Of a stretch of 64,000 nt of DNA, positions 523 to 63,979 are shown one piece after another. The DNA is from Actinomycetes bacterium (GTDB lineage: Bacteria > Actinomycetota > JAICYB01): positions 12,688 through 76,687 of the forward strand of contig JAICYB010000004.1 of NCBI GenBank assembly GCA_025934435.1, given 5' to 3'. Numbering within the stretch: position 1 is the first letter of the stretch; every line of letters begins with the position of its first letter. Below the pieces are notes generated by a model that was given only the letters and a program-made list of their open reading frames with translations, ran no database searches and had not been told where the DNA came from. A program made the position numbers and the translations under genes.

Positions 523-1377
523 TTAGACGAGTTGGTCGGCTACATCTTGCGGCAACAGGCCCACGGATGGAAGACGACGGAGGAGCTCTCTCCAGTGCCC
601 GGTCGGAGCGGCGTAGGCACGCTCGAGGAACGAACGTGCTTCGTCCACCTTGCCGAAGTTCGCGAGCATGACGCCCCGCCAGAACGTGAATTCCATGTTG
701 TCCGGCGCGCCTTCCTGCGCCACTTCGTACGCCTGCATCGCGGCTTCGAGGTCGCCCGCGGCGAGGTGGGCGTCCCCTTCGTTCATCGACACATACGACC
801 GGTGCACGCGGACGAGGCGACGCAGCTCGTGCAGCGGCTCGGGATCGTCCTCGACCCGCAGTTCGACGACGCCGGCGACGAGCAACGCCGACGACTGCCT
901 CCCGCGGATGTCGCCGCCCTCCGCCTCGGCGGCATCGAGCGCTGCGAGCAACCGATCGATCAGGTCGCCCGACGCGGCTTCGAAGGCCGATGCCATGGCG
1001 GACGGAACCGTGTCGCGAAGCATCATGTTCGCCTGGCACGAGTAGTTCTCGCCGACGACGTGGGACGCTTCGCCGAGGCACTCGGCCCCCGTGTGCGCGT
1101 GGACGTTCCCGGACGAATCGATCATCGCGACCTGCCGCCGTGACGACGCTTCGTCCGCGGCGAGGAGGGCGGACAACGCTTGCGGCGCCGTCTTGCCGCC
1201 CCGCATCAGCCCGAGGCCGAGCGGTCCGTAGGACGGCTCGCCGAAGGCTTGCGTCGCGACGGCGCCGACGCCCGGCTCGGCCCACGTGACGACCGAACCG
1301 GTCCCGAACCAGTGCGACTGGACGGCCACGCCGAGCTGCCCGGTGGACGGATCCCTCGCGACGATCGAATAGGTCAT
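523..1377 (-). CDS. DUF1028 family (Ntn-hydrolase-like) protein
   Basis: N-terminus MTYSIVARDPSTGQLGVAVQS is the characteristic DUF1028 start (Thr2 nucleophile). Confidence 0.65.
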   Translation of the reverse strand: MTYSIVARDPSTGQLGVAVQSHWFGTGSVVTWAEPGVGAVATQAFGEPSYGPLGLGLMRGGKTAPQALSALLAADEASSRRQVAMIDSSGNVHAHTGAECLGEASHVVGENYSCQANMMLRDTVPSAMASAFEAASGDLIDRLLAALDAAEAEGGDIRGRQSSALLVAGVVELRVEDDPEPLHELRRLVRVHRSYVSMNEGDAHLAAGDLEAAMQAYEVAQEGAPDNMEFTFWRGVMLANFGKVDEARSFLERAYAAPTGHWRELLRRLPSVGLLPQDVADQLV

Positions 1378-28600: not shown

Positions 28601-31600
28601 GCTCTATGCCGACGGTGTCGCCGATACGGTGACCATCTCGCACGACACGCTCGGCACGACGAACCCGACGAATTCCTCGAACCCGTTCACCATCGGGTCG
28701 CGCGCGACGGGTCTGAACTTCAACGGATCGATGTCCGACGTCGCCTTCTACGACCGCGCACTGTCGAGCGACCAGGTGGCGAACCACCGCAATGCCGGCA
28801 TCACCGCGCCACCGGCTCCGGTCACCGATCACCGCATCGACGTGCAGGACCAGCAGTTCGTCGCCGGCGGTCACCTCACGGTCACGTCGGCGGCAGCGAC
28901 GTTCGGTCCGAACTACGGGCTGCTCACCCAGACCACCGACCCCGACGGCAAGATCACGCAGACGCAGTACGCCGACGCGGTGAACGGCATCGACCCGAAG
29001 TTCGGCCTGCCCACGGCGACCATCCAGGACCCGAGCACGCTGAATCTCAAGACGTCGACCGCCTACGAGCCGCCGGGCGCGACGAGCTTCCTGCGGCGTG
29101 TATCGAAGACGCTTCCTGCCGGCAACCAGACGACGTATGCGAACTACGCGGGAAACGATCCGCCCATCGCCAACGTGTGCGGGGTCACGGCGTCCACGCT
29201 GCAAGCCGGGCTTCCCAAACAAGAGACCGATCCCGTTCCGGCCGTCGGTTCGGCGCGCGTCGAGCAGTACGTCTACGACTCGCTCGGCCGCGAGGCCGGA
29301 CACCGCATCGGCACGACAGCCACCATCTCGTCGGTCGGCTGGGACTGCACGACCTACGACGCCGCGGGTCGCATGGTGACGCAGTCGTGGCCGGCCTTCG
29401 GATCGCAGCCGTCACGCACCGCCACGTACACATACGGCGTCGGCTCCCCGACGCCGAATCCGCTCGTCAACTCGGTGACCGATACGACGTGGCCGGCGCA
29501 GTCCATCTCGACGACCGTCGACCTGCTCGGCCGGACCGTGAGCTACAGCGACATCTGGGGACAGACGACGACGACGACCTTCGACCAAGCGGGCCGGGTC
29601 ACCGACACCGCCGGACCAGTCGGGGCGCGCCACACCGACTACGACGGCGCCGGACGAGTCTCAGATCAGATGCTCGGCGCTCAGAAGGTCGCTGTGCCCG
29701 GCTACGACGCGCCGACCGGACGGATGACGAGCGTGTCCTACCCGACGGGGACCGGCAACGGCGGCAACGGCAGCAACCTCGCCATCGGATACGACGCCAA
29801 CGGCCGCCAGAATTCCTTGAGCGCCACGGGGCCGGGTTCAGCCCTCATCACCTCAGACAGCGACGTCTTCAGCGCTGGCGCGCGGGTGAGCTCGGAGACC
29901 ATCGACGGCAACTCCGGCAGTCCTTCTTCCTTCGGCTACGACGGCGCCGGCCGGCTCACGACGGCCACCGTCCCCGGCCACACCCTCACCTACAACTACG
30001 CCGCCACCGGCGGATGCGGTCCTGAAGCGGCGGCGGGAAACAACACGAACCGCACGAGCGTGGTCGACGGCGCGACGACCACGACGTACTGCTACGACAA
30101 CGCGGACCGTCTCACTTCGACCTCCGACGCCCGCTACACGACGCCGACCTACGACGATCATGGCAACACGTCTTCGATCGGCGACGAGACCATCACCTAC
30201 GACGCCGCCGACCGCCACCTGGCCACGACGACGACCGGCGGTGCCTTGCCGACCACGGTCAATTACCTCCGCGATCCCCTCGACCGCATCGCCGAGCGCG
30301 ACGCCACCGTGATCCCGCCGCTCGGCCGCCGCACGCCTGGGACCATCGCCACGACATCGACCACGGTGACGAGCATCGCTGTCCCGAAACCGGCAGGAAC
30401 CGTTTCCGGCGACTTCCTGCTCGCCGACATCTCCGAACGCGGGACGCCGACCATCACCCCGCCGTCGGGATGGACACTGCTCAACTCGACGGCGAGCGGC
30501 ACGACGGTGACCGATGCCGTCTACTACAAGGTCGCGGGATCGAGCGAGCCGGCGTCGTACACCTTCTCGTTTTCGACAGCTACCTCGGCCACCGGAGCGA
30601 TCATGGGCTACGTGGGCGTCGATACCACGAACCCCATCGACACTTCGGGTGTCGTGACGGACACCAACGTGACCTCGCACACCGCTCCCGCCGTGACCAC
30701 GACGAGCCCTGACGACATGCTGCTCGTCATCTTGGCCTCCGACGGCAACAGCACCGTCACCAAGGACGCGCAGACCACGCAGCAGTGGTTCCTCAAGAGC
30801 GCCGCGGCCAGCAACAACGTGGAGTCCGACGGCGCCGACCAGGTCGTCACCAAGACCGGCTCGACAGGTACGCGCAGCGTCACCACGGCCACGGCGCAGA
30901 GCTCGGTCGTGCGCTCCATCGCCTTGAAGTCGCGCCCGGTGGCGCCCATCGCCTTCCGCGACGTTGCCACGGCCACCACCGGAGCCTCGATCCTCACACC
31001 GCTCGTCGTGCCGAGACCGGCCAAGGCCCTGCCGGGCGATCTGCTCGTTGCCGACGTCTCCCTTGTCGGCGCACCGACCATCACCACGCCGCCGGGATGG
31101 ACGGCGTTGCCGCCCCAGGTCATCGCGGGCCTGCTCACCGACGAGATCTTCTACAAGGTGGCGACCTCCTCCGAGCCGACCTCGTACTCCTTCGCCTTCT
31201 CGGCGGCCACCTCGGCCACCGGCGCCATCACCGCCTACTCGGGCGTCGATCCGCTCAACCCCATCGACGTCTCAGCCGTGGCCACCGACGGCTCGACGAC
31301 GACGACGCACACGGCGCCGAGCGTCACGACGACCTCGCCCGCCGACACCGCGCTGTTCATCCTCGACGCAGCCGGTAACAGTGCCGTCACCCCGGACGCG
31401 CAGACGACGCAGCGCTGGAACCTGGCGACGACGGCAGCCACCAACGTGCAGAGCAACGGCGCCGACCAGCTGATCGCGGCCGCCGGCGCAACGGGCACAC
31501 GAACGATCAAGACGGCGACCGCGGCGCGCGGGATCATGCGCTCCATCGCCCTTCGGCCGCAGGCCGTGAGCCGCACACGCTACGGCTACGAGGGCCACGA

Positions 31601-32348
31601 CGACTCACCGTCACTCGAGATGGACGGCGCGGGCAGCATTATCGACCGCACGGTGTCGCTCGCCGGTGGCGTGGTCGTCACGCGCACCGTCGCCACGGCA
31701 ACCTCCACCGACACCTGGAGCTACCCGAACGTGCATGGAGACGTGGCTGCGACGGCGAACGGCAGCGGCGCCAAGGTTGGGTCGACACTCACCTACGATC
31801 CGTATGGTCAGCCGCTCGCGGGAAACGCGTCCGATACGTCGAGCAACTTCTCGTTCGGCTGGGAAGGATCGAAAGAGAAGCTGACGGAGCATCAAGACGA
31901 CATCGCGACCATCGAGATGGGAGCGCGTCAGTATGTCTCGGGTCTCGGGAGATTCCTCAGCGTTGATCCGGTTGAAGGTGGGTGTGCGAACGCGTACGTC
32001 TTTGCGTTCGGTGATCCTGTCAGCTATCCCGATCTCAATGGCTTGCGGTCAAAGCCGTGTAGCTCTAAGCACCACCACGGCTTGGGTTTCTATATAGGCG
32101 TTGCAGTTGTCGGCGGTTTTGTAGCAGGCGCGGCGGCAGCGGGCAGTGTCGCCGCCGGCGGTGCGGCAATTGCTACCGTTGCTAGCGCGGTTCTTGCGGG
32201 AAACGCTCCGCTCATCCCCGACGCGGTCTCCGACGTCGCCCGAGCAGTAGTCACTGCCGCGACCTTCCTCGGGGGCGCAGCGGGCGCGGTCGGAACGCAC
32301 AACGAGATTTGTAATGGTCAACGTCATGTGGAGGCGCCGCAGCCGTGA
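22617..32348 (+). CDS. secreted RHS/YD-repeat polymorphic toxin (WapA/teneurin-like), 3243 aa
   Basis: GGAGG RBS 7 nt upstream of the ATG. N-terminal signal-peptide-like segment (RKRERVRLSAAALITLCALLATSVQPANA). Two PA14-like domains (GLQGDYYNDTNGNG...; ASWYP...VLVDGHLVVD). Three LamG/ConA-like repeats (WRL..[AS]G....D..G...G.Y...Q.FSVEAW[IV]KT...WHH...TYDG). Numerous YD repeats (YDSLGR.., YDAAGR.., FGYDGAGRLT..). RHS terminal repeat (WSYPNVHGDVAATANGSGAKVGSTLTYDPYGQPL) and core (GARQYVSGLGRFLSVDPVEGG.NAYVFAFGDPVSYPDLNGL) followed by a short variable tip. Confidence 0.9.
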   Translation: MRPFFQRRLFRRVSFRSRSAASKRSSRKRERVRLSAAALITLCALLATSVQPANASVSRPKAQKPLKKVEILHSRHPRAIRPRVSGVAPVTFHSGDRKRQKHRAVRELRSDRTALLRAFANDDGTITIQNYLTPIFHKTHRGWVPIHNDIVRRGHLLETTGNAWRTAFDATKSGMKLSAPEGTVRIVPVGPRGNARPDVISSPNRLRFRSARGTLAHTAIPPAGLVGYRGVWRDVDLRYEVSGNGLKENIQVRSSKAPAAYAFDVLGAILKADKRGGLALAGPLGRRFYIPALMVRGADGSLLTSPSRARYGLTALPHGKGTRVTVTLDQWWLRSLPNKAFPLDVDPTFGDCRGTVGECPDTNAITLGSNGFSSSNTTVDVGRDSSGNIFRAAMYFQDYETWLKQDYRVYDSQLALNVSPGVGTLTVADQGSNDPTSPTWTYTQLSNAGVPIVGTWDSTIPGSSTVFDATNTVDQWYAGNLTKRWFGITGTETGSSNTEDSMNGFLTLDVYFQPAASRVTNLTANQILSTTTPSLQAFAIQPAPNTEFANGGYEPIYDYEITTSPVPGKSIVASSGDLGCSNSDPGVWSCSQDTDGGGPIPTWNVPPGALQDGVTYYAWVLTDWSNRPYALFHDGAPETTPPASWGVPFKVDLGLGNGGNFPTDAVGAVPGSAQTPSEGAPNPALPPSKVTVNLVDGNAAIAVDNPKLETVSGGAQLRFTYNSLATAQEGVRGLQGDYYNDTNGNGTLDPGTDALVAERTDPSVWFNTGFPVQGIVDAQSPAKALAEWTGFLTLPNSDSWEIGDISSDGVTATVNGVSRLSDFGPHAAQPKPTFGTSFAATPQMPIKIDWHHSSGRPSVIAMYAKDMATCDANGNNCKVYALDPSWLTRAPKTLPAGWAFNSTAATAQWTRLVDHGDLVTLYADDGTGHVFTRASGGRYVAPPETPQDLLTNVGNGQFNLVSGGYTYTFGPTGDAISIVTTSDDLHPAAPQHSFTGTPPLLHTITDPVRCAGAVPCPSSSQVSLNYGGDAGAPAECNGAPSGMLCYISYFDASATIITYDSFGNLSRIIEPGNVVYDFAYDSLGRVTDVRDPLAYNAIQAGVRVDDATAKTHITYDSSSATGRVQTITQPAPAAGGARPERLYCYGSAKAYSAGAPSCNTAQANTTSVGVYGFNPTVGYAYQEQYDSRNRKVASFDSAGLKTSYTWDDKDRQVTTVDPAGLETSTIYDALGHAVTNYGPAAKALFNADGTLITPGSAPTTQKTYDGGITGLAASWYPTTDLSGSAAYHTTSNLADTWSGACNSPSACNGGGTVIPASGFSGDLSGKVTLPSPGRISFDGDGGRVLVDGHLVVDQKDGPLSAAVRADHPLDFWRLADATGSTLAADSSGALAGTYSPSGTTRGVGGPASGDNATAATFDGTAGNITIPDDPTLRFDRLQPFSVEAWIKTSSATTQVIASKLPNAGSGWELDVSSGKLLFLLTNSYPSNTIQRSGSVTLTDGNWHHVAVTYDGSSTAAGVTFYEDGVADPAPVTNVDTLTSDPRGTSGLNIGSRPADGFFFNGTIADVAVYNQQVSAARIAAHKAAAALLSSAAASPIIYNSPYPTAVDANSPTSFWRLGEASGTTATDSNGSSNGMYTGSVTLNQPGPIPGDPSTSAIFGGGTGTVSVPDSPALRVNQSQPFSVEAWVKTTTSSQMAIASKMPGTGSLQGWEFGLASGKPYLTVINTVATNWIDVAASTSVVDGRWHHLVGTYDGSSRASGVHLYIDGHIDGGPGLIFGDSLSASSASSVPLYIGSRAANSLWFFGNLANVAMYPNALGADDVARHAVAGQGPVPLTVQQDGAASYWRLGESLPQVKALDMTGANNATYSPLGCGQTTGGLNGDANGATTFDGTNCNVSVGEMPSLRVGRTQAASIEAWVKTTAAVTQVIAAKMANTSPFTGWDFVMNPSGQLYFQLISSWTASAIEVDGTKVLKDGAWHHVAATYDGSGVAAGVKLYADGVADTVTISHDTLGTTNPTNSSNPFTIGSRATGLNFNGSMSDVAFYDRALSSDQVANHRNAGITAPPAPVTDHRIDVQDQQFVAGGHLTVTSAAATFGPNYGLLTQTTDPDGKITQTQYADAVNGIDPKFGLPTATIQDPSTLNLKTSTAYEPPGATSFLRRVSKTLPAGNQTTYANYAGNDPPIANVCGVTASTLQAGLPKQETDPVPAVGSARVEQYVYDSLGREAGHRIGTTATISSVGWDCTTYDAAGRMVTQSWPAFGSQPSRTATYTYGVGSPTPNPLVNSVTDTTWPAQSISTTVDLLGRTVSYSDIWGQTTTTTFDQAGRVTDTAGPVGARHTDYDGAGRVSDQMLGAQKVAVPGYDAPTGRMTSVSYPTGTGNGGNGSNLAIGYDANGRQNSLSATGPGSALITSDSDVFSAGARVSSETIDGNSGSPSSFGYDGAGRLTTATVPGHTLTYNYAATGGCGPEAAAGNNTNRTSVVDGATTTTYCYDNADRLTSTSDARYTTPTYDDHGNTSSIGDETITYDAADRHLATTTTGGALPTTVNYLRDPLDRIAERDATVIPPLGRRTPGTIATTSTTVTSIAVPKPAGTVSGDFLLADISERGTPTITPPSGWTLLNSTASGTTVTDAVYYKVAGSSEPASYTFSFSTATSATGAIMGYVGVDTTNPIDTSGVVTDTNVTSHTAPAVTTTSPDDMLLVILASDGNSTVTKDAQTTQQWFLKSAAASNNVESDGADQVVTKTGSTGTRSVTTATAQSSVVRSIALKSRPVAPIAFRDVATATTGASILTPLVVPRPAKALPGDLLVADVSLVGAPTITTPPGWTALPPQVIAGLLTDEIFYKVATSSEPTSYSFAFSAATSATGAITAYSGVDPLNPIDVSAVATDGSTTTTHTAPSVTTTSPADTALFILDAAGNSAVTPDAQTTQRWNLATTAATNVQSNGADQLIAAAGATGTRTIKTATAARGIMRSIALRPQAVSRTRYGYEGHDDSPSLEMDGAGSIIDRTVSLAGGVVVTRTVATATSTDTWSYPNVHGDVAATANGSGAKVGSTLTYDPYGQPLAGNASDTSSNFSFGWEGSKEKLTEHQDDIATIEMGARQYVSGLGRFLSVDPVEGGCANAYVFAFGDPVSYPDLNGLRSKPCSSKHHHGLGFYIGVAVVGGFVAGAAAAGSVAAGGAAIATVASAVLAGNAPLIPDAVSDVARAVVTAATFLGGAAGAVGTHNEICNGQRHVEAPQP

Positions 32349-38995: not shown

Positions 38996-39306
38996 AGGAG
39001 GTCGTCCAACGACTTCTTCTTCTTGGGCTCCCGTGCCATGAGGTCTCCGAGGTCACCTTTCGGTTTCGTTGCTTCTTCCGACAATCGGGCTTCGAGCTGC
39101 GCCGACTTCCCCTTGATATCCCCCGCCGCTTCCATCAACTCCTCGAGCGACTTCCGTGGCCCGCCCTCGATACGGATCCGGAGCGCCGCGAGGACGTCCG
39201 CGTGCCGGTCGATCAGCCCCTGCGTCCGGTCGATCTCCGCGAGCACCGCCTCCGCCTTCCGCAGCAGGCCAAGATCCGCATCGTCTTGCTTGGCTTTCTC
39301 CGCCAC
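38992..39306 (-). CDS. hypothetical coiled-coil protein
   Basis: 104-aa charged, helical-looking ORF; ATGA overlap with the downstream cupredoxin gene. Confidence 0.35.
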   Translation of the reverse strand: MAEKAKQDDADLGLLRKAEAVLAEIDRTQGLIDRHADVLAALRIRIEGGPRKSLEELMEAAGDIKGKSAQLEARLSEEATKPKGDLGDLMAREPKKKKSLDDLL

Positions 39307-39368
39307 GCTCCCAGCCTATCGGCTTGCTGAGGCCCGTTACCCTTGATGGTCCGAGAGGGGGCTTTGAG

Positions 39369-40830
39369 TTGACGAGAGAACGCCTGACACCTGCCGACGC
39401 GATGTTCCTCCACCTGGAGGACGACGTCACGCACATGCATGTCGCCTCGGTGACGATCTTCGAAGGTTCGGTCGATTACACCGAAGCCGTCGAACATCTG
39501 CGCAAGCGACTCCACCTCGTTCCTCGCTTCCGTCAACGACTCGCATCCGTTCCGCTCGGAGCGGGCCGTCCCGTGTGGGTGGACGATCCTCATTTCAATC
39601 TCGAATACCACCTTCGTCACACCGCGCTCCCCGAACCGGGATCGGAGGAACAGCTCAAGAACCTGACCGGACGGCTCATGTCCCAACAGCTCGACCGGAC
39701 GAAGCCCCTCTGGGAGATCTGGCTCGTCGACAAGCTCGCGGGCAACCGGTTCGCGATGATCAGCAAGACGCACCACTGCCTCGTCGACGGCGTCTCCGGT
39801 GCGGACATCACCGCCGTCCTCCTCGATCTCGAAGCCGATCCGCCCGACGTGGAGCAGCAGCCGTGGACACCGGAACCGGAGCCGACTCCCGCGCAGCTCC
39901 TCACCGAAGCCCTCGTCGAGCGCGCAACGGAACCGGTGGAGATCGCACGTAACATCCGCCGCACGCTGCGGACGCCCCGCCGGATCGCGAAGCAGGCGAC
40001 GGACGTCCTCGAAGCACTCGGCGCACTCGCGTGGGCGGGCCTGAATCCCGCCCCGCACACGGCGCTGAACGTCCCGATCGGCCCCCACCGTCGCGTCGAA
40101 TTCGTGCGGGCGTCGCTCGCCGACTTCAAAGCGATCAAGAACGTGCTCGGTGGCACGGTGAACGACGTCGTACTCGCCGTCGTGACCGGTGCGCTCCGTC
40201 GGTTCCTCCAGCACCGCGGCGTCGACGTCCGCGGTCTCGAGATGAAGGCCATGGTGCCGGTGTCGACGCGCGCCGAAGAGCAGCAAGGCGCGCTCGGCAA
40301 CCGCGTCACGGCGATGGCGGCTCCGCTCCCCGTCTACGAAGAGGAGCCCGCGCTGCGTCTCGCGATCGTCCGCGAGTCGATGAAGGACGTGAAAGAGAGC
40401 AAGCAGGCCGTCGGCGCCGAGATGATCACCTCGCTCTCCGGTTTCGCGCCTCCGACGATCCTCGGTCAAGCCGCGCGTCTGCAGAACAACCAACGCTTCT
40501 TCAACCTGCTCGTGACGAACGTCCCCGGCCCCCAGTTCCCACTGTGGTCGGGCGGACATCCGCTCATCGATCTCTTCCCGATCGCACCGCTCTCGTCGAA
40601 CCAGGCACTGAACGTGGCCGTCATGTCGTACAACGGCCAGTTCGGCTTCGGTCTGCTCGCCGATTACGACGCGATCCCCGACCTCGGCGTGTTCGCCGAG
40701 GGCCTCGAGAAGTCGATCGGCGAGCTCCTCCAAGCCGCGGAAGAGATCAGTGCGCGTGGTTCGTCCGACGGAGCCGCGGTGATGGACGAAGCCGCCATCG
40801 CCGAAGCAGCGGATCGCGAAGTTTCACCGC

Positions 40831-40838
<8 letters not shown>
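39369..40838 (+). CDS. wax ester synthase / acyl-CoA:diacylglycerol acyltransferase (WS/DGAT)
   Basis: Catalytic HHCLVDG (HHxxxDG) motif; ~489 aa from a TTG (alternative ATG at 39402). The track ORF 39156..40838 is over-extended. Confidence 0.8.
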
Positions 40839-41521
<683 letters not shown>

Positions 41522-42760
41522 CTAGCCTCCCGTACCCGCCGCGTAGGCGGTCTCCCCGTGCTGCGAGAGGTCGAGTCCGACGTTCTCCTCATCCACAGTT
41601 ACCCGGAGACCGATCGTCCAGTCGACCGCCTTCAGGATGATGAAGCTGAGCGCGAATGACCAACCGGTCACGATCAACGAGGCAAGCGCCTGCTTGCCGA
41701 CCTGCGTGAACGTCCCCGAGTAGACAAGGCCGACCTTCGCAGCGAACACGCCGGTCAGCAGAGCGCCGACGAGGCCTCCCACGTAATGGACCCCGACGAC
41801 GTCGAGCGCGTCGTCGTAGTTGAACCGTCGCTTCAGGTTCACGGCGAAATAGCAGATGAACCCGGCCAGTCCGCCGATCACGAGCGCCGCCCACGGCCGG
41901 ACGAATCCCGACGCCGGCGTGATCGCGACGAGTCCGGCGACCGCGCCGGTCGCGGCGCCGACGGTCGTCGGCTTGCCGTGCTCGGCCCACTCGGGGATCA
42001 GCCATCCGAAGATCGCAGCCGCCGCCGCGAGGTGCGTGTTCGTGAACGCGAGAGCGGCGAGCGCGCCGGACGCGAGCGCGCTCCCACCGTTGAACCCGAA
42101 CCATCCGAACCAAAGGATCGACGCACCGAGCACGACGTAGGGCACGTTGTGGGGGACGAACTCACCCTCCGGCCATCCCTTCCGCTTGCCGAGGACGAGG
42201 ATCGCCGCGAGCGCGGCGATACCTGCGTTCTGATGGACGACGGTCCCACCGGCGAAATCGAGTGCGCCGAGACCGTGGGGGCCGAGGAGCCCGTTACCCC
42301 AGACCCAATGTGCGACCGGCGCGTACACGACGAGCACCCACACGGCGGTGAAGATGACGTACGCACTGAACTTGAACCGCTCGGCATATGCGCCCGCGAT
42401 GAGTGCGGGCGTGATCACCGCGAACATCATCTGGTACGACGCATACGCGAGATGCGGCACGGTCGGCGCGAGTCCGATCGGGGCCGCGCCGACGTTCCGG
42501 AAACCGAGGAAGTCCAGTCCGCCGATCCAGCCGCCGTTCCCGATCGCTTTCCCGATGTCGGGACCGAACGCAAGAGTGTGCCCGATCAGCACCCAGAGCA
42601 CTGTGACGATGCCGAGGGCCATGAAGCAGTACATGATCGTCGACAGGACGTTCGTCGTCCGGACGAGGCCCCCGTAGAAGAACGCCAGACCCGGCGTCAT
42701 GAACATGACGAGCGCCGCCGAAGCGAGCAGCCACGCCGTATCACCCGCACTGATATGCAT
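41522..42760 (-). CDS. amt: ammonium transporter
   Basis: 412 aa from ATG 42760; Amt/MEP signatures (DFAGGTVVH, twin-His). The track ORF 41522..43684 is over-extended through glnK2. Confidence 0.9.
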   Translation of the reverse strand: MHISAGDTAWLLASAALVMFMTPGLAFFYGGLVRTTNVLSTIMYCFMALGIVTVLWVLIGHTLAFGPDIGKAIGNGGWIGGLDFLGFRNVGAAPIGLAPTVPHLAYASYQMMFAVITPALIAGAYAERFKFSAYVIFTAVWVLVVYAPVAHWVWGNGLLGPHGLGALDFAGGTVVHQNAGIAALAAILVLGKRKGWPEGEFVPHNVPYVVLGASILWFGWFGFNGGSALASGALAALAFTNTHLAAAAAIFGWLIPEWAEHGKPTTVGAATGAVAGLVAITPASGFVRPWAALVIGGLAGFICYFAVNLKRRFNYDDALDVVGVHYVGGLVGALLTGVFAAKVGLVYSGTFTQVGKQALASLIVTGWSFALSFIILKAVDWTIGLRVTVDEENVGLDLSQHGETAYAAGTGG

Positions 42761-42785
42761 GCCCACCGACTTTCTAGCACAAAGA

Positions 42786-42817
42786 AGGGGCGCGGCCTCC
42801 GAAGAAGCCGCGCCCCT
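42786..42817 (-). terminator. GC-rich hairpin downstream of glnK copy 2 (intrinsic terminator candidate)
   Basis: 10-bp stem aggggcgcgg / ccgcgcccct with a 12-nt loop, followed on the minus strand by a T-rich tract; sits ~25 nt upstream of the amt copy-1 start. Confidence 0.5.
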
Positions 42818-44952: not shown

Positions 44953-46856
<1,904 letters not shown>

Positions 46857-51615: not shown

Positions 51616-52595
51616 CGCCGCGTCCGACGAAGTCCTCGCTCGAAGAACTTCTCGCGAACGCGACGTCCCGCGAGCAGTGGAAGACCGCTGAGTCGCTCTC
51701 AGGAAGCATGCTCGAGCGCATCGAGATCGAGGGCGAGCCGTTCGTCTTGAAGCACATGCACGTCGACGACGACTGGATCCAGCGTTCGATGGGCGATCTG
51801 TACACGAAGCCGCTCGAGATGTGGCGGTCGGGCCTCTTCGACGCACTTCCGCCGTCCATCGACCACACGATCGTCGACGTCGCCTGCGGTCTCGGGCGCA
51901 ACGGATGGGGTTGCGCGGTCTTGATGCGGGACGTGTCCTCGTCGATGCTCCCGATCGACACGATCCCGATCGACCTCCAACTCCAGTTCCTCGATCACAT
52001 GGCGGAGCTCCACGCTCGCTTCTGGGGCTTCGAGGACACCGTCGGCCTGCTCCCGGTGAGCAATCGGTACTTCTTGTTGTCGCCGCTGATGGCGTCCTTG
52101 GAAGCGGAGCGCGAAGCGGTCGACGTCGTACCGTCGATCGTTCCACAGGGATGGGCAACTACCTTCGATTCCTCCGCGGTCGTCGCGAAGTTCGTCCGCC
52201 CGCTGCTGGCCGATCCCTTCCCGCTGGTGCAAGCGCAGGCGTCCGACCCGCAATGCCTCGTCCACAGCGATTGGAAGGCCGGCAATCTCGGTGCGACACC
52301 CGACGGGCGGACGGTGCTCATCGACTGGGCGCTACCCGGGCAAGCTTCGGTCACGGTCGACATCGCCGACTACCTCGCGGTGAACTGCGATCTCTTGCCC
52401 GTTTCGAAGGAAGAGACGATCGCGCAGTATCGCGAAGCACTCGAACGGCGCGGGATCGCCACGGAAGCTTGGTTCGAGAGATCGCTCGACCTGTCGCTCC
52501 TCGGGCTCACGGTGTTGATGGCGTGGTCGAAGCAGGGCGACGAGCTCGCATGGTGGGAAGAACGCGTCGAGCGCGCTATGCGCTACTTCGACTGA
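51600..52595 (+). CDS. phosphotransferase-family (APH/kinase-like fold) protein
   Basis: Brenner-type motif VHSDWKAGNLG (HxDxxxxN); DWA Mg-binding region (LIDWALPG). Confidence 0.6.
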   Translation: MGTSLTPRPTKSSLEELLANATSREQWKTAESLSGSMLERIEIEGEPFVLKHMHVDDDWIQRSMGDLYTKPLEMWRSGLFDALPPSIDHTIVDVACGLGRNGWGCAVLMRDVSSSMLPIDTIPIDLQLQFLDHMAELHARFWGFEDTVGLLPVSNRYFLLSPLMASLEAEREAVDVVPSIVPQGWATTFDSSAVVAKFVRPLLADPFPLVQAQASDPQCLVHSDWKAGNLGATPDGRTVLIDWALPGQASVTVDIADYLAVNCDLLPVSKEETIAQYREALERRGIATEAWFERSLDLSLLGLTVLMAWSKQGDELAWWEERVERAMRYFD

Positions 52596-55138
52596 GCGAC
52601 GGCCGTGTGCAGGTGCGCCTCGAGCTCGGCGATGCGCGCCGGGTCCGTGAGCTTGTGTCCCGCGAGATCGCGCACATAGAAGACGTCGACGACGTCCAGG
52701 CCGTACGTCGCCACCTTCGCGAGCGACAGGTCACATCCGGCGTCCGCCAGAACCTTCGTGATCACGCGGAGCAAACCGACCCTGTCACGCGTGTGGATCT
52801 CCACGACGGTGTGGGACTCCGACGCGGCATTGTCGACGACGACCTCGGCGTCCGATGGCGACGCCGGCGCGACGCGCCGCCGCCGCGTCTGCGCGGTCTT
52901 GCGTGCCAGTTCCGCGTCGAGGTCCAGTGAACCGTCCAATACGGCGATCACGTCCGAGCGGACGCGCGCCCACCGGTCCTCCGGGATCGGTCCGTGCGCG
53001 CCGATCACGCGGAAGATCTCGACCGCGATGCCGTCCGAACGTGTGTAGATCTCCGCATCGTGCACGTCGATCCCGCGGAGCGCGAGTGCGCCCGTGACCA
53101 TCGAGAACAGACCCGGCCTATCGTGCGCGACGAGCACGAACTCCTCCGCGTCCTCGACGGTCGCCGTCGCCGTCCGAACCTCTCCCGCTGCGAGCGGTTG
53201 ATAGAGCAACACGAGCTGACGCGCGGCCGAAGCCACATCGACGCTCCGCATCCAGCTCTCGGGCATCGGTCCGGCGAGACGCAAGGCCTCGGCGGCGTCG
53301 ATGTCGAGCGCGGCCGCGATCTCGTTCAACCTGGTCGATGCCGCGTCGTCGTCGACCCTCACACCTTCGAGGTGCTCCAGTGCCTTCGCGTAGAGCTCTC
53401 GTATGAGCGATGCACGGAAGGACGACCACGCCTCGGCCCCCGTCGCGAGCGAGTCGGCTCGCGTCAGCAGGAAGAGCATCGCCAGACGCCGGGCGTCGCC
53501 GACGCGTGACGTCACCTCTTCGATCGTCTTCGGATCGCTCAGGTCGCGCCGCGTGGCGAGCGTCGGGAGCAAGAGGTGGGCTTCGACGAGGAACGCGGCG
53601 TCTGCACGTTGATCGTCGCGAAGATTCATCGATATGGCGGCCTTCGCCACGATCTCGGCACCGAGCGCGCTGTGATCGGTGTCGCGGCCCTTCCCGATGT
53701 CGTGGAGGAAGGTCGCGAGAACGAGCGCGTGCGCATCGTCGACACGCGTCCATGCGTCCCGCACGTAGGCGTCGTCGCTGCTGCGACTCGACGCGAGCTC
53801 GGCGACGGCCTCGATCAGATGCCGGTCGACCGTGAACCGGTGGTAGAGATCTCGCTGCGGGTAAGCGCGGATCGCCCTCCACGGCTCGAACAGCGTCGTG
53901 ATGAGGCCCGCGCGATCCATCGCTTCGAGCGCGTCCGACCCCGGACGTCCCGACTCGAGGATGTCGAAGAACGCTTCGCGTGCTTCGGGCGTCCAACGCA
54001 CGGTGCCGGACGACTCGAGTTCGTCGTGCAACCGGTTGATCGACGCGCGGCCGATCGGCGCATCCGCACGGACCGACCGACGGAAGACGCGGAGCCATCC
54101 GGCGGGATCGTCCGCGACGTGCGTCACGGCAACGACCTCGAGGCGGCCGTCCTGCAGGACGCATCCATCGCCGACCGATTCCGACGACGAGCGTCGCAAC
54201 CGTCGGCGACGCGTCGCATGCAGGATCTGATCCCAGAAGCTGGACGCGATCGCATCGACGTTCCGCGCGTGCTCGTAGACGTCCCGCATCAAGATGTCAC
54301 CGGCGCGCCGCGGTGGTTCGTCCACATAGCCGAGGTTCTCGGCGATCGGGTCCTGATCGGCGAGATAGAGCTGATCCTGATGCCGCGAGGTCCGGAGATG
54401 GAGGTCGATGCGGATCCGCAACAGGACGCGGCGAGCGTTGCCCAGCATGACGGCGTCGCGTTCACTGAGATAGCCGGATTGCGCGAGCGCGTCGATGCCG
54501 TCGCCCCCGCGCAGGCAGCGCGACGCCCACGCGACGGACTGGATGTCGCGGAGGCCGCCCGCGGAATCCCGGATGTTCGGCTCGAGAAGGTGTCCGGCAT
54601 GGCCGAAACGGTGATGGCGCTCCTCGCTCGCCGCCGCAAGATCGCGCAGGAACGCATGCCGGTTGCGTTCGAGATGACGGCGGACCTGATCCTCGAGATC
54701 GGCGAACAAACCCTCGTCTCCCGCGAGGAACCGAGTGTCGAGCAACGCGCAGAGCTCGTCGACCCGATCGATGTTGCGAAGTGCCTCGCGCGGCGTGCGG
54801 ACGCGGTCGCCGAGATCGCGCCCCGAATCCCAGAGCGGGTACATCACGGCGCGATTCAGCGTGTTGATGTCCGCCGGTTTCAAACCGCCGTGCAACAAGA
54901 CGAGATCGAGATCGGACCCCGTCGAGAGCTCGCGACGTCCGTATCCGCCGAGGGCAACGAGGGCGACGGGTCCGGGAACGGATCCGGACGCGAGCGCGCG
55001 TTCGAACGTCTCGATCACGAGTCCGTCGGCGTCCGCCGTATGCGCGTGGAGGATCTCGTCGGGTTCCGCGCCGCTTCGCTGCATATGCTCAACGCGTTCG
55101 CGTGCGCGATCGAACGAAGCGCGGATCTCTTCCGTCAC
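52583..55138 (-). CDS. glnD: [protein-PII] uridylyltransferase / uridylyl-removing enzyme
   Basis: 851 aa; N-terminal nucleotidyltransferase (GGYGRRELSTGSDLDL); HD domain (HDIGKG); two C-terminal ACT domains. Confidence 0.9.
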   Translation of the reverse strand: MTEEIRASFDRARERVEHMQRSGAEPDEILHAHTADADGLVIETFERALASGSVPGPVALVALGGYGRRELSTGSDLDLVLLHGGLKPADINTLNRAVMYPLWDSGRDLGDRVRTPREALRNIDRVDELCALLDTRFLAGDEGLFADLEDQVRRHLERNRHAFLRDLAAASEERHHRFGHAGHLLEPNIRDSAGGLRDIQSVAWASRCLRGGDGIDALAQSGYLSERDAVMLGNARRVLLRIRIDLHLRTSRHQDQLYLADQDPIAENLGYVDEPPRRAGDILMRDVYEHARNVDAIASSFWDQILHATRRRRLRRSSSESVGDGCVLQDGRLEVVAVTHVADDPAGWLRVFRRSVRADAPIGRASINRLHDELESSGTVRWTPEAREAFFDILESGRPGSDALEAMDRAGLITTLFEPWRAIRAYPQRDLYHRFTVDRHLIEAVAELASSRSSDDAYVRDAWTRVDDAHALVLATFLHDIGKGRDTDHSALGAEIVAKAAISMNLRDDQRADAAFLVEAHLLLPTLATRRDLSDPKTIEEVTSRVGDARRLAMLFLLTRADSLATGAEAWSSFRASLIRELYAKALEHLEGVRVDDDAASTRLNEIAAALDIDAAEALRLAGPMPESWMRSVDVASAARQLVLLYQPLAAGEVRTATATVEDAEEFVLVAHDRPGLFSMVTGALALRGIDVHDAEIYTRSDGIAVEIFRVIGAHGPIPEDRWARVRSDVIAVLDGSLDLDAELARKTAQTRRRRVAPASPSDAEVVVDNAASESHTVVEIHTRDRVGLLRVITKVLADAGCDLSLAKVATYGLDVVDVFYVRDLAGHKLTDPARIAELEAHLHTAVAQSK

Positions 55139-55176
55139 GTCAACAGTGTGACTGCTATCACGCGTGGAAAAGGAAA

Positions 55177-55206
55177 CTCCCGGCGGGTCTCCGCCGGGAG
55201 TTTTGG
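55177..55206. terminator. GC-rich hairpin flanked by A-run (5') and T-run (3'): bidirectional intrinsic terminator candidate
   Basis: ctcccggcgg-gtct-ccgccgggag followed by ttttggttt; lies between the repeat-protein stop and the glnD start. Confidence 0.6.
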
Positions 55207-55225
55207 TTTCCTTGATAACCGCGCG

Positions 55226-55699
55226 TTACTTCTTCTTGCGCGGGCGCTTCATTGCGATCTCAGGAGCAGCCGCAGCCTTGCGACGACGTCCTGCGGACTT
55301 CTTACGACCGCCGGCCTTCTTGCGTCCGGTGGCCTTCTTACGGCCGGTCGCCTTCTTGCGGCCGGTCGCCTTCTTACGGCCAGTGGCCTTCTTGCGGCCG
55401 GTCGCCTTCTTGCGTCCGGTGGCCTTCTTACGACCGCCGGCCTTCTTGCGGCCCGTGGCCTTCTTACGGCCGGTCGCCTTCTTGCGTCCGGTGGACTTCT
55501 TGCGACCCGCGGCCTTCTTGCGACCAGTGGTCTTCTTGCGGCCGGTCGCCTTCTTGCGACCAGCAGCCTTCTTACGACCTGTCGACTTCTTACGAGCAGT
55601 CGACTTCTTGCGAGCCGGAGACTTACGCGCCGTCGACTTCTTGCGCGCAGCCGGCTTACGCTTCGATCGCTTCGCAGCCTTGCGTGGCATTCGGTTCAC
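55226..55699 (-). CDS. histone-H1-like repetitive basic protein (Lys/Arg-rich hexapeptide repeats)
   Basis: 157 aa made almost entirely of [AST]GRKK[AKS] hexapeptide repeats. A strong GGAGGGAGG RBS precedes the in-frame ATG (~55690); the track start is a GTG 9 nt upstream. Rho-independent terminator immediately downstream. Confidence 0.55.
   Translation of the reverse strand: MNRMPRKAAKRSKRKPAARKKSTARKSPARKKSTARKKSTGRKKAAGRKKATGRKKTTGRKKAAGRKKSTGRKKATGRKKATGRKKAGGRKKATGRKKATGRKKATGRKKATGRKKATGRKKATGRKKAGGRKKSAGRRRKAAAAPEIAMKRPRKKK
55290..55650. repeat. ~20 tandem copies of an 18-bp unit (coding repeats of 55226..55699)
   Basis: ggccttcttgcg[tg]ccgg[tc]c units visible directly on the plus strand. 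Confidence 0.8.
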
Positions 55700-55879
55700 C
55701 TCCCTCCTACTTGGTCAGATGACCTCTGCATGCATCCAACAAACACGCAGATGCATAACCCACTAACGAGGTCAAGATTCACCATAGCGACAAGTCGTGC
55801 GTATGTGAAGGGTTTTCACGAAACTCATTCGAACGAGTTCTTCGCACGATCAACAGGTCGGTAACGCGTTTCGCGCGTG

Positions 55880-56212
55880 CTACGACGCAACGCGCGTGCG
55901 CGGTCGACGACCGATGCGCACGGCAGCAACGCGTGAAAGCACGTCGCGGATGTCTTCACCATCCGCGATGAGTGCGAACAAGCGCTGCGCTTGTCGACGC
56001 AAACGTGTGCGTTCGCGTTCAGTAAGTCCGCCCCAGATCCCGTAACGTTCGCTGTTCGCGAGTGCGTATTCGAGACAGTCGAGACGTACGGAACAATTCA
56101 CGCAAACACGTTTCGCTGAATCGCCGGGACTTCCACGTTCGGGGAAGAACAGATCTGCATCTTCACCACGGCACAGTGCGTGCTCTTGCCAGTCGTAACG
56201 GATCCGCCACAC
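55880..56212 (-). CDS. whiB: WhiB-family transcriptional regulator
   Basis: Four Cys (C..C..C.....C) plus the GIWGG turn; 110 aa. Confidence 0.85.
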   Translation of the reverse strand: MWRIRYDWQEHALCRGEDADLFFPERGSPGDSAKRVCVNCSVRLDCLEYALANSERYGIWGGLTERERTRLRRQAQRLFALIADGEDIRDVLSRVAAVRIGRRPRTRVAS

Positions 56213-56309: not shown

Positions 56310-56735
56310 TCAGCTGAGGTAGCGGCGCCAGATCCAGAAGGACGACATCAGCATCGCGCCCGAACCGAACAACCCGAGGATCGCGAGGCCGCGATTGGGG
56401 GTCGCCGCCGGCGTCGGCGTCGGGCTCGGCGTCGGGGTCGGCGAAGCGGTCGCCGTCGGTGTCGGTGAAGCGATCGGCGCCGTGCTGTGCGAGGGGATCG
56501 GCGTGAAGGTATGGAAGAACGTGCGCACGGGCGTCTTCGTCGGAACCGGCGTCGGCTTCACCGTCGGAGACGGTGTCGGCGTCGGGCAATTGAACCCCGG
56601 TATGCACGCCGGCGTGGGCGTCGGCGTGGCGGTGACCGTCGGCGTCGGGAAGGTGATCTGCGCCTGTGCGATCGCCGCGCCACCAAGTGCAAAAAGCACG
56701 ATGAACAGGGCAGATATGGCGATCCGGCGCGTCAT
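56310..56735 (-). CDS. secreted Pro/Thr-rich protein with C-terminal hydrophobic anchor
   Basis: Signal peptide (AIAQAQ); low-complexity TPTPTP repeats; C-terminal TM plus RRYLS basic tail. Confidence 0.4.
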   Translation of the reverse strand: MTRRIAISALFIVLFALGGAAIAQAQITFPTPTVTATPTPTPACIPGFNCPTPTPSPTVKPTPVPTKTPVRTFFHTFTPIPSHSTAPIASPTPTATASPTPTPSPTPTPAATPNRGLAILGLFGSGAMLMSSFWIWRRYLS

Positions 56736-61964: not shown

Positions 61965-62687
61965 GTGAGCGACTGGGACGCCGCCACCTACGACAAGGTC
62001 TCCGATCCGCAAGCGCGGTGGGCGCTCGCGGTCATCGAGCGCATCGAAGGATCGCCCGCGCGCATCCTCGACGCGGGCTGCGGATCCGGACGAGTCACCG
62101 AACTCCTGATCGAGCGCTTCCCGCAAGCGCGCGTCTTCGCCGTCGACGCCTCGCAGGCGATGGTCGAACGAGCGCGGCAGAGGCTCGGCAGCCGGGCCGA
62201 AGTCCTGCAAGGCAACCTGACCGATCCGTTGCACATCGACGCCGTGGATGCCGTCTTCTCGAACGCGGTGTTCCACTGGATCGACGATCACCCGAAGCTG
62301 TTCGCCAACCTGGCCTCGCTGCTGCGTCCCGACGGACAGCTCGTGGCGCAGTGGGGCGGGTTCGGCAACATCGAGAACATGCTCGAAGTGACGCGCCGGC
62401 TCGGCGGCCCGCAGCCGTACGAGCGGAACTTCGCAACGCCGGAGGAAACGAAGCACCGTCTCGAGGTTGCCGGCTTCGGCGACGTACAGGCATGGCTCGA
62501 GCCCGCTCCGACGCAGTTCGACTCCCGGGACGCGTTCGCGACTTACTTGCGTACGGTTTGCCTTCGCGTGCATCTCGATCTGCTGCCGCCGGACGAACAG
62601 GACGCCTACGTCGACGCCGTTGTCGATGCGATGCCGGACCTCCGTATCGATTACGTGCGCCTGAACGCGGTGGCCCGCCGGGCATGA
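61965..62687 (+). CDS. class I SAM-dependent methyltransferase (Tam-like)
   Basis: Motif I ILDAGCGSGRVT; motif II/III spacing; 240 aa. Confidence 0.8.
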   Translation: MSDWDAATYDKVSDPQARWALAVIERIEGSPARILDAGCGSGRVTELLIERFPQARVFAVDASQAMVERARQRLGSRAEVLQGNLTDPLHIDAVDAVFSNAVFHWIDDHPKLFANLASLLRPDGQLVAQWGGFGNIENMLEVTRRLGGPQPYERNFATPEETKHRLEVAGFGDVQAWLEPAPTQFDSRDAFATYLRTVCLRVHLDLLPPDEQDAYVDAVVDAMPDLRIDYVRLNAVARRA

Positions 62688-63979
62688 CCGACCCGCGGCG
62701 CAAGCTTCCGCAGGTCGACCGGCTGGTCGGTGAGCTCGACCATCTGGGTCTGCCACGTCCCGTGGTGGTCGATGCGGTGAGGCGCGTCGTCGACGCGCAG
62801 CGTCGACGAGCGCGCCGGACGAAGCAGGTTCCGTCGGAAGATGAGCTCATCGCGGTGTGCCGCGATGAGCTCATCCGCACCCACCGCAGCGTACTCCGTC
62901 CCGTCATCACCGCGACCGGCGTCCTCCTTCACACGTACCTCGGACGCGCTCCGTTGTCGCACGGCGCGTTCGACGCCGTCGCGACCGTCGCCCGCGGCTA
63001 TTCGAACCTCGAGTTCGATCTCACCGGCGGACGGCGCGGCGATCGTTTCGTCCACGTCGAGCCGATGCTCGCGGCGCTCACGGGGGCCGAAGCGGCTCTC
63101 GTCGTCAACAACAACGCGGCGGCCGTCCTGCTCGTGTGCGCCGCACTCGCATCCGGGAAGGAAGTCGTCATCTCACGCGGAGAGCTCATCGAGATCGGCG
63201 GTTCCTTCCGCATCCCGGACGTCCTCGCGCAGTCCGGCGCGCTCCTCCGCGAGGTCGGTACGACGAACAGGACGCACGTCCGCGATTACGAGCGTGCGGT
63301 CTCGGAGAACACCGCGTTCATCCTGAAGGTGCACCCATCCAACTACCGCGTCGTCGGTTTCACCGCATCGCCGTCGACCGAAGCGCTCGGCAAGCTCGGC
63401 GTCCCCGTCGTGTACGACATCGGGTCAGGACTCTTCGGACGAACCATCGCCGACGAACCCACCATCGACGGTGCGCTCGCGGCCGGCGCGTCGCTCGTCT
63501 GCTTCTCGGGCGACAAGCTCTTCGGCGGGCCACAAGCCGGGATCGTCGTGGGCCGCGCCGACCTCGTGGCGGCGCTCCGCACGCATCCGCTGCTGCGGGC
63601 GCTCCGTCCCGACAAGATGCAGCTCGCGGCGCTGGGCGCGACCGTTGAGTCCTACCTGCGCGACGCCGGCGACATCCCGGTTGCGCGCATGCTCGACGCA
63701 GGCTCCGGCGAGATCGCGGGCCGGGCGCGCAAAGTCATTCGGGGCATCGACGATGCGTCGCTCGTCGACGGCGAGTCGATGACGGGCGGGGGCTCCGTCC
63801 CGGGCGAAGGCATCGCGACGACGTTGATCGCGATCCCCGACGCGAAGCTCGCGGAACGCCTGCGCGACGGCGACCCGCCGATCATCGTGCGCGTCGAGAA
63901 GGGCCGCGTCCTCATCGATCTCAGAACCGTCGATCCCCGCGACGACAAGATCGTCGCGTCCGCGCTCGCTAACCGATAA
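62684..63979 (+). CDS. selA: L-seryl-tRNA(Sec) selenium transferase
   Basis: ATG overlapping the methyltransferase stop (ATGA). SelA hallmarks: YSNLEFDL..G.RG.R, LTGAEAALVVNNNAAA, SRGELIEIGGSFRIP, EVGTTNRT, PLP-Lys in FSGDKLFGGPQAG. The track ORF 62018..63979 is over-extended. Confidence 0.8.
   Translation: MTDPRRKLPQVDRLVGELDHLGLPRPVVVDAVRRVVDAQRRRARRTKQVPSEDELIAVCRDELIRTHRSVLRPVITATGVLLHTYLGRAPLSHGAFDAVATVARGYSNLEFDLTGGRRGDRFVHVEPMLAALTGAEAALVVNNNAAAVLLVCAALASGKEVVISRGELIEIGGSFRIPDVLAQSGALLREVGTTNRTHVRDYERAVSENTAFILKVHPSNYRVVGFTASPSTEALGKLGVPVVYDIGSGLFGRTIADEPTIDGALAAGASLVCFSGDKLFGGPQAGIVVGRADLVAALRTHPLLRALRPDKMQLAALGATVESYLRDAGDIPVARMLDAGSGEIAGRARKVIRGIDDASLVDGESMTGGGSVPGEGIATTLIAIPDAKLAERLRDGDPPIIVRVEKGRVLIDLRTVDPRDDKIVASALANR

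Follow-up and report, generated by a model that had tools for sequence, protein, structure and literature searches.

The 64,000-nucleotide stretch of DNA analysed here (the window) comes from an Actinomycetes bacterium (GenBank assembly GCA_025934435.1, contig JAICYB010000004.1, positions 12,688 to 76,687 of the forward strand). On its minus strand, between whiB and glnD, lies a gene for a small polycationic protein that consists almost entirely of tandem hexapeptide repeats. By analogy with histone H1 and the chlamydial protein Hc2, we favour a role for this protein as a free-standing, nucleoid-associated protein. Here, we describe the gene, its relatives and its expression signals, and weigh this reading against its rivals.

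A polycationic repeat protein between whiB and glnD

The open reading frame (ORF) occupies positions 55226..55690 on the minus strand, running from an ATG (55690..55688) to a TAA (55228..55226), and encodes a product of 154 amino acids. An earlier note on this DNA, made from its letters alone, had counted 157 residues, in keeping with a GTG at 55699 that is the first start given by the ORF tool. This GTG sits within the Shine-Dalgarno (SD) sequence GGAGGGAGG (55699..55707, minus strand, 8 nt upstream of the ATG), and every ortholog has its start at the ATG corresponding to 55690, so that the product has 154 residues and the three extra codons are ribosome-binding-site (RBS) sequence. The coding sequence is supported by its translation, the conserved MP(R/K)K start, the orthologs and the codon bias. 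It is flanked upstream by a whiB paralog (55880..56212, minus strand; PF02467, 88.5 bits) and downstream by glnD, encoding a PII uridylyl/adenylyl-transferase (52583..55138, minus strand; TIGR01693, 606.6 bits), matches that bear out the placement given before.

Lysine (31%) and arginine (18%) together make up 49% of the 154 residues (76 codons), a share that had been underestimated at about 40%, followed by alanine (18%), glycine (12%), threonine (10%) and proline (3%). There is a single acidic residue, and the net charge is +75. The protein is laid out as MPRKAAKRSKRKP, approximately four (A/T)ARKKS units, 17 GRKKxx units and AAAPEIAMKRPRKKK, with the repeats beginning at residue 14 and the GRKKxx units spanning residues 38-139. 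Each hexapeptide follows the pattern G-R-K-K-A/S/T-T/A/G, carrying three positive charges and one Ser/Thr per six residues. The roughly 20 GRKK units counted earlier are thus real repeats, which resolve into 17 GRKKxx units and about four degenerate ones before them. At the DNA level, Tandem Repeats Finder places an array with a period of 18 bp at 55298..55618 (minus strand), with 17.8 copies, 80% matches and no indels. This imperfect tract encodes GRKK(A/S/T)(T/A/G), and its longest exact repeat is 32 nt; the claimed 18-bp period therefore holds without indels, whereas its supposed perfection does not. Single-sequence AlphaFold modelling gave neither helix nor strand (pTM 0.11), marking the chain as disordered throughout, and searches of Pfam, NCBIfam and PDB sequences returned nothing at threshold for the protein, both in agreement with the anticipated lack of a globular domain. 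No second Lys-rich ORF is found within the 64-kb window.

A synteny-defined group of orthologous loci

Relatives of the locus were sought through its neighbours. A glnD-based scan of species-representative genomes yielded one, L001 (an uncultured Actinomycetes metagenome-assembled genome (MAG) with a GlnD 59% identical), a whiB-based metagenome scan yielded 12 loci, and L017-L025 came from exact look-ups of WhiB homologs. In all loci that extend far enough past whiB (about 14), a K/R-rich repeat ORF follows in the same orientation, and the whiB genes of these relatives are 85-99% identical. The orthologs share the SD GGAGGTGA 5-8 nt before the ATG and an MP(R/K/T/M/A)K..AAKR N-terminus; most clades also share the C-terminus AP(E/A)(I/V)AMKRPRKKK, with the end APEIAMKRPRKKK kept by the clade of the window and by the AKRKP clades. 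A position downstream of whiB, this SD, the MP(R/K/T/M/A)K start, in-frame K/R-rich repeats and a GC hairpin recur together in the window, L001, L005-L008, L010-L015, L017, L019, L020, L022 and L023. Alignment, motif counts and a list of 5′ untranslated regions (UTRs) add to these the promoter block CCTTCACA-N17-GCTAT(G/C)GT and the 5′-UTR palindrome GGTCATCYGAYC. Downstream of the repeat gene, glnD follows in L001, L005, L006, L008, L010, L013-L015, L017 and L023. In L020, its place is taken by an unrelated membrane protein, so that linkage to whiB is universal and linkage to glnD frequent but dispensable. Judged from sequence and gene order, the gene is a member of a synteny-defined group, so far undescribed, from an uncultured lineage of Actinomycetota.

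The WhiB paralog has a conserved C-terminal extension of ~35 aa (…LFALIADGEDIRDVLSRVAAVRIGRRPRTRVAS) that ends in an AT-hook-like GRRPR. Its full-length matches, 75-99% identical, are from Actinomycetota metagenome assemblies and MAGs, whereas WhiBs of Acidimicrobiales and Streptomyces match the core domain only and not the extension. The -35 element of the repeat-gene promoter is immediately preceded by an A-tract (AAAAC). Since this A-tract adjoins the -35 and the WhiB carries the AT-hook-like motif, the neighbouring WhiB might activate expression of the repeat protein.

Evidence for translation

An open frame by itself is no proof of a gene here, since all three plus-strand frames are likewise open across the tract, and the comparative evidence decides. 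Within the repeats, 72% of the codon differences are synonymous in the sense frame and 71% in the antisense frame that shares its wobble positions, so that synonymous/non-synonymous counts fail to separate the two. Variation between units is concentrated at the wobble position, with an entropy of 0.86 at codon position 3, 0.29 at position 1 and 0.09 at position 2, which speaks for coding. The similar synonymous fractions and the open plus-strand frames leave room for a reading in which the tract is a non-coding tandem repeat, or in which the ORF lies antisense to the true one (an FLRPVA frame at 55164..55766 on the plus strand). The antisense frame is excluded only by start and stop signals, codon-family switches and rare-codon content, which all point the same way. 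SD, ATG, promoter and terminator all have minus-strand orientation and are conserved across clades, and the termini of the protein are conserved while the repeats change. The codon for the conserved Arg of MKRP, CGC, swaps with AGG, AGA, CGA and CGG across relatives, and the two-position switches between CGC and AGG keep Arg only in the sense frame, which indicates selection on that frame. The antisense frame, for its part, would depend on rare TTG Leu codons. Over the last 22 codons, comparison of the window with L006 and L005 gives five synonymous and no non-synonymous changes, and the repeat periods across clades (18/36, 30, 33 and 63) are all multiples of 3.

The codon usage of the gene differs from that of its neighbours. 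Lysine is encoded by AAG in 48 of 48 cases, CGG and GGG stand at 0%, and CGT, GCT and ACC reach 39%, 32% and 60%, respectively, whereas in the neighbouring genes CGG accounts for 9-33% and ACG for 43-74%. In high-GC actinobacteria, such a codon pattern is a signature of highly expressed genes, and on this basis the repeat-protein gene is probably highly expressed; the complete lack of AAA codons also avoids slippery poly-A runs. Chance is excluded as an explanation because this is the sole Lys-rich ORF in 64 kb and its orthologs recur in independent assemblies. With its own RBS, terminator and conserved promoter, the locus is almost certainly a translated gene, and the earlier description of a stand-alone coding gene is upheld.

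Turnover of the repeat array and reliability of the assemblies

The repeats themselves differ widely between relatives. Loci whose whiB is 98-99% identical to that of the window have GRKK(A/S)T units, in ORFs of 82 aa (L005) or 155 aa (L006 and L017). AKRKPARRKKA-type units of 30-33 bp are found in L001, L008, L010, L011/12 and L023, AKRKP-type units in L014 and L015, and nearly Arg-free AAKKP/GAKKT units in L013, L019/20 and L022, with ORF lengths of 82-155 aa across clades. Comparison of repeat number among relatives, as the earlier note had advised, thus shows that both unit type and length vary (82 versus 154-155 aa at 98-99% whiB identity), and the clade-specific units and lengths support its prediction that the locus is prone to copy-number change. 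With each clade having its own homogenised unit and length, the array turns over by duplication and deletion of units. Conserved termini and signals around a replaced core are the expectation for unequal recombination or slippage when selection acts on charge and frame only; the protein is under selection for its charge pattern and reading frame, not for its sequence.

Repeat tracts invite misassembly, and this had been raised as a possible artefact. For the window it is unlikely, given exact repeats of at most 32 nt; for the relatives, it is a real risk. On the reassuring side, L006 and L017, whose 155-aa version is closely related to that of the window, are identical in separate assemblies (JGI and ENA), and L014 and L015 match in length across different samples, with two substitutions between them. 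In L023 (MAG GCA_040905525.1; 4757..4857 and 5150..5230), an N-run (scaffold gap) lies within the repeat tract, because of which the gene is called as a 62-aa fragment. The same locus has three 27-bp direct repeats, AAGGATGCCGCGAAGCGGCCCCTTCT, between terminator and glnD. In L007 (a 1.1-kb contig, 717..1100), the first 113 nt match L006, after which the sequence drifts in the repeats and ends in unrelated sequence (…GARNVTDLLRRIFGQGLPAQI); this is probably a misassembly at the repeat. In view of the N-run in L023 and the divergence of L007, some of the length differences among relatives may be assembly artefacts. Such breaks of short-read assemblies in orthologous tracts, together with the open plus-strand frames and their similar synonymous fraction, are what can be said for a non-coding repeat, an antisense ORF or an artefact. 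Set against the minus-strand signals, the Arg codon switches, the short exact repeats and the agreement between separate assemblies and samples, this reading is hardly credible.

Transcription signals and the 5′ untranslated region

The spacer between whiB and the repeat gene (171-238 nt) is alignable across clades. A promoter scan and the intergenic alignment place a predicted sigma-70-type promoter, TTCACA-17-TATGGT, at 55781..55809 (minus strand). In the alignment, the block CCTTCACA...GCTAT(G/C)GT is nearly invariant across the orthologs, and the spacer block AAAACCCTTCACA-N17-GCTAT(G/C)GT coincides with the promoter-like site that the scan found independently. The strong RBS and the intrinsic terminator directly after the stop codon, both named in the earlier note, are also borne out. 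The predicted terminator (55160..55207, minus strand; hairpin 55173..55204) consists of a 13-bp GC-rich stem followed by the U-tract UUUCCUUUUCC. It lies 21 nt past the stop codon, and its U-tract ends ~25 nt before the GTG start of glnD. Ortholog terminators were compared by individual folds, as their stem lengths differ and a column-wise alignment is out of register; they form perfect 13-15-bp hairpins (-27 to -33 kcal/mol) with a U-tract, and their stem sequences differ. Read together, these predicted signals delimit the locus as a monocistronic unit. Because the U-tract ends so close to the GTG, and relatives conserve the first 18 residues of GlnD, expression of glnD would depend on read-through or on a weak promoter that overlaps the terminator. 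The hexamer CACACT at -12..-7 of the glnD GTG is a plausible candidate -10 element for a leaderless glnD transcript.

With a terminator between the ORF and glnD, and little room for a promoter in the ~25 nt after the U-tract, the ORF might have a regulatory or nitrogen-linked role. Translation of its 76 Lys/Arg codons could make it a leader-like sensor that governs how much transcription passes the terminator into glnD, or the protein could serve as a Lys/Arg nitrogen reserve, holding ~1.86 N atoms per residue (calculated from composition); glnD lies downstream in at least nine loci. We consider this highly improbable. The same signals persist in L020, which has no glnD downstream, the hairpin begins at least 17-21 nt past the stop codon, and a conserved antiterminator was not found. 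The product, at 154 aa, exceeds known leader peptides tenfold in length, its termini are conserved at the amino-acid level, and the plausible leaderless -10 ahead of the glnD GTG would offer that gene a start of its own.

The 5′ UTR carries a 12-nt palindrome, GGTCATCTGACC (55713..55724, minus strand), just upstream of the SD. Motif counts find one copy in the window, with zero mismatches, and one per locus in 16 related loci, at a constant position. The palindrome has its complement in GGTGA(A)CC, a stretch overlapping the SD at the 3′ end of the latter, and both sides are invariant. It may serve as an operator or act at the RNA level; as it is single-copy in the window, no regulon can be inferred. 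RNAalifold gave a weak structure for the 5′ UTR, in which an anti-SD-like ACCUC pairs with the SD, with 0 compensatory pairs, and an Rfam search of the locus returned sub-threshold chance matches only.

This UTR bears on the idea that the product is a disordered RNA- or ribosome-binding protein, acting as a translation regulator or RNA chaperone in the manner of PhaF and perhaps autoregulating through the 5′-UTR element. The disordered KPAA region of PhaF binds RNA and activates translation from upstream of the SD (PMC12818456). In the group described here, the invariant 12-nt element stands immediately upstream of the SD in 16 loci, and the ACCUC near the predicted mRNA 5′ end is conserved. 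We nevertheless regard such a role as unlikely: there are zero compensatory pairs for any UTR structure, the palindrome is unique in the window with no visible regulon, and the protein sequence holds nothing that separates RNA binding from DNA binding.

Relation to known basic repeat families

Exact look-ups of the 154-aa and 157-aa proteins and of GlnD gave no record. Single-sequence and ortholog-profile searches of 5.8 billion proteins found no full-length homolog, phmmer against 1.84 billion representatives gave repeat or periodicity matches only, again with no full-length homolog, and PHROGs gave periodicity matches only. What the billion-protein searches matched were either tails attached to other domains or hexapeptide repeats of an unrelated kind. 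Repeats of the GRKK(S/T)T and AKRKPARKK types form tails of DNA-binding domains, namely BlaI/MecI/CopY, ribbon-helix-helix, SWIB, DUF1918, DUF6496 and a DdbA-like DksA protein, several of them with a Pfam HC2 annotation; the ortholog profile recovered the DdbA-like architecture (P0024).

The HC2 models (PF07382 and NF038052) leave the window protein unmatched even at E<=10, and NF038053, which describes the H1-like proteins of Burkholderia and Bordetella, does not match it either. Orthologs come closer. PF07382 scores 37.8 bits on L013 (cut-off 40), NF038052 scores 35 bits on L020 (cut-off 135), and NF038053 scores 19-33 bits on orthologs (cut-off 80; 32.7 on L020), with E values of about 1e-8 for L013 and L020 against NF038052 and NF038053. 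Units of the AAKKP/AKKT type occur only in the distant orthologs L013, L020 and L022.

Membership in established types was also considered. The Hc2 unit is an Ala-rich pentamer with two basic residues, whereas the window unit is a hexapeptide with three. The AlgP/PhaF type does not fit a protein with no helix or strand in the AlphaFold model, no KPAA and no Pfam domain, nor does an HU protein with a basic tail (HupB/MDP1/HupS) fit one with no Pfam match and repeats from residue 14. As to AT-hook proteins, the sequence has G-R-K-K and lacks both RGRP and GRP. A linker histone H1 would call for a Linker_histone domain, for which there is neither a sequence match nor a predicted structure, and the protein has 3% Pro and 12% Gly.

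A putative histone H1- or Hc2-like nucleoid-associated protein

By analogy with proteins of similar build, we propose, with a probability of roughly 0.6, that the product is an H1/Hc2-like nucleoid-associated protein that lacks a scaffold domain. It would coat polyanions, most probably chromosomal DNA, through multivalent electrostatic contacts, and its neutralisation of charge would compact or bridge the DNA in the manner of histone H1 and Hc2, with the number of repeats setting the valency of binding. A strong promoter and a terminator directly before glnD would ensure a high output of the basic protein, while glnD would receive low read-through or be initiated separately and weakly. DNA is favoured as the ligand because the repeat module is recurrently fused to DNA-binding domains and because of precedents for DNA binding. 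Hc2 is a size-variable DNA-binding protein of Lys-rich pentamers (PMC2848022), KPAA repeat peptides of AlgP and PhaF bind DNA (PMC9239181), and the H1-like Lys repeats of DdbA, TopA and HupB are reported to do so.

The closest functional analogues, as judged by build, appear to be Hc2 and BpH1. Like the window protein, Hc2 (HctB) of Chlamydia is small and made nearly entirely of consecutive basic repeats of 5-6 residues with evenly spaced charge, and in Hc2 (PMC2848022) as in the window gene group, size varies by gain and loss of repeats while the frame is kept. The units differ, those of Hc2 being Ala-rich pentamers with two charges and those of the window protein (GRKKAT) having three charges per six residues and being Gly/Thr-rich and Pro-poor. 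The window protein also has other conserved termini, belongs to another phylum and sits in whiB/glnD synteny; DNA binding is ascribed to it by analogy. Bordetella BpH1 and the Burkholderia H1-like proteins (NF038053) resemble the window group in their Lys-rich repeats and length variation (PMC2848022), whereas the repeats themselves are unrelated and ortholog scores lie far under the 80-bit cut-off. Because Hc2 and BpH1 are free of a scaffold, largely repeat-built and size-variable (PMC2848022), the premise of the earlier note that basic repeats usually sit on scaffolds is right in part and overstated.

Scaffolded counterparts do exist. In the same phylum as the window, the tails of HupB/MDP1, HupS, DdbA and TopA are reported to be Lys/Ala/Pro-type low-complexity DNA-binding modules; there they are appendages on HU, DksA or topoisomerase, whereas in the window protein the repeat module is the whole protein. 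The C-terminal KPAA domains of AlgP and PhaF are likewise disordered polycationic tandem repeats of about 150 aa; they bind DNA, polyphosphate (polyP) granules or mRNA, and their repeat number is a mutational hot spot (PMC9239181, PMC12818456). AlgP and PhaF have folded or helical N-terminal domains and KPAA tetrapeptides, whereas the window protein has neither and is built of GRKKAT hexapeptides.

The C-terminal domain of eukaryotic linker histones with its S/TPKK motifs, and protamines, are disordered and very basic, place Ser/Thr beside basic pairs and condense DNA by neutralising its charge. Compared with a linker histone, the window protein has no winged-helix domain, 3% Pro and T-G-R-K-K instead of S/T-P-K-K, and it is bacterial.

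Several points weigh against an H1/Hc2-like role. The similarity to Hc2 and H1-like proteins is compositional, lies below all curated thresholds and leaves the window protein itself unmatched. The antisense wobble-sharing frame is open too, and nearly as many of its codon differences are synonymous (71% versus 72%). Repeat domains that are just as basic bind polyP granules (AlgP) or mRNA (PhaF), so that the ligand is not assignable from the sequence. Finally, a simple coating model leaves the conserved C-terminal motif and the 5′-UTR palindrome unexplained.

The third of these points opens the way to a role as an organiser of polyP granules or another polyanion, which we deem unlikely. With a charge of +75 and no sequence-specific element, the protein would bind any polyanion, and the disordered Lys-rich repeat domain of AlgP is needed for the spacing of polyP granules in nitrogen starvation (PMC9239181). 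The neighbourhood also relates to nitrogen regulation, with glnD adjoining and amtB and P-II within 13 kb. AlgP, however, has a 124-aa helical N-terminal domain (PMC9239181) for which the window protein has no counterpart, the window ORFs examined include neither ppk nor any other polyP gene, and the repeats have no sequence in common with KPAA.

Other genes in the window

The nitrogen genes mentioned above are an ammonium transporter gene, amtB (PF00909, ~41522..42800, minus strand), and a P-II gene (PF00543, ~44953..45291, minus strand). They lie 7-13 kb from glnD, with other genes between all of them, and do not form a canonical amtB-glnK-glnD operon. Upstream of whiB, 56310..56735 (minus strand) encodes a protein of 141 aa, rich in Pro and Thr, which has a hydrophobic segment near the N-terminus, the segment GLAILGLFGSGAMLMSSFWIWRRYLS at the C-terminus and no Pfam match; a Pro/Thr-rich membrane protein is kept at this place in L001, L005, L006, L008, L009, L011 and L012. 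Further away, a 3243-aa ORF (22617..32348, plus strand) has three LamG/ConA-like domains and RHS repeats, and probably encodes a large secreted or surface toxin-like protein. ORFs at 62018..63979 and 39156..40838 (both plus strand) have SelA (selenocysteine synthase, PF03841) and WS/DGAT wax-ester synthase matches, which bear only on the metabolic background of the organism.

Implications

Bacterial H1-like proteins have been described chiefly in Chlamydia, Bordetella/Burkholderia and Pseudomonas, or else as tails of actinobacterial HU, TopA and DdbA. The locus described here represents a free-standing version in an uncultured soil lineage of Actinomycetota. One may speculate further that it is an undescribed, WhiB-controlled component of actinobacterial chromatin, a scaffold-free 'bacterial protamine/H1' whose valency would be tuned by rapid repeat turnover. 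A leaky terminator would couple it to the nitrogen sensor gene glnD and so tie nitrogen status to the state of the nucleoid or polyanion (or to a Lys/Arg nitrogen reserve), with the palindrome as an autoregulatory RNA site. We consider this elaborate version improbable.

The case also illustrates how such proteins escape gene finders and family models, there being no orthologous family among the billions of predicted proteins searched, and repeat numbers taken from MAGs are unreliable. The likely function is unsurprising; the gene is solidly real and evolutionarily instructive. Its repeat core has been replaced repeatedly while charge and frame were kept and the expression signals and termini stayed conserved, and the group thereby offers a natural series for the effect of valency, charge spacing and Arg/Lys ratio on the condensation of DNA, RNA or polyP.

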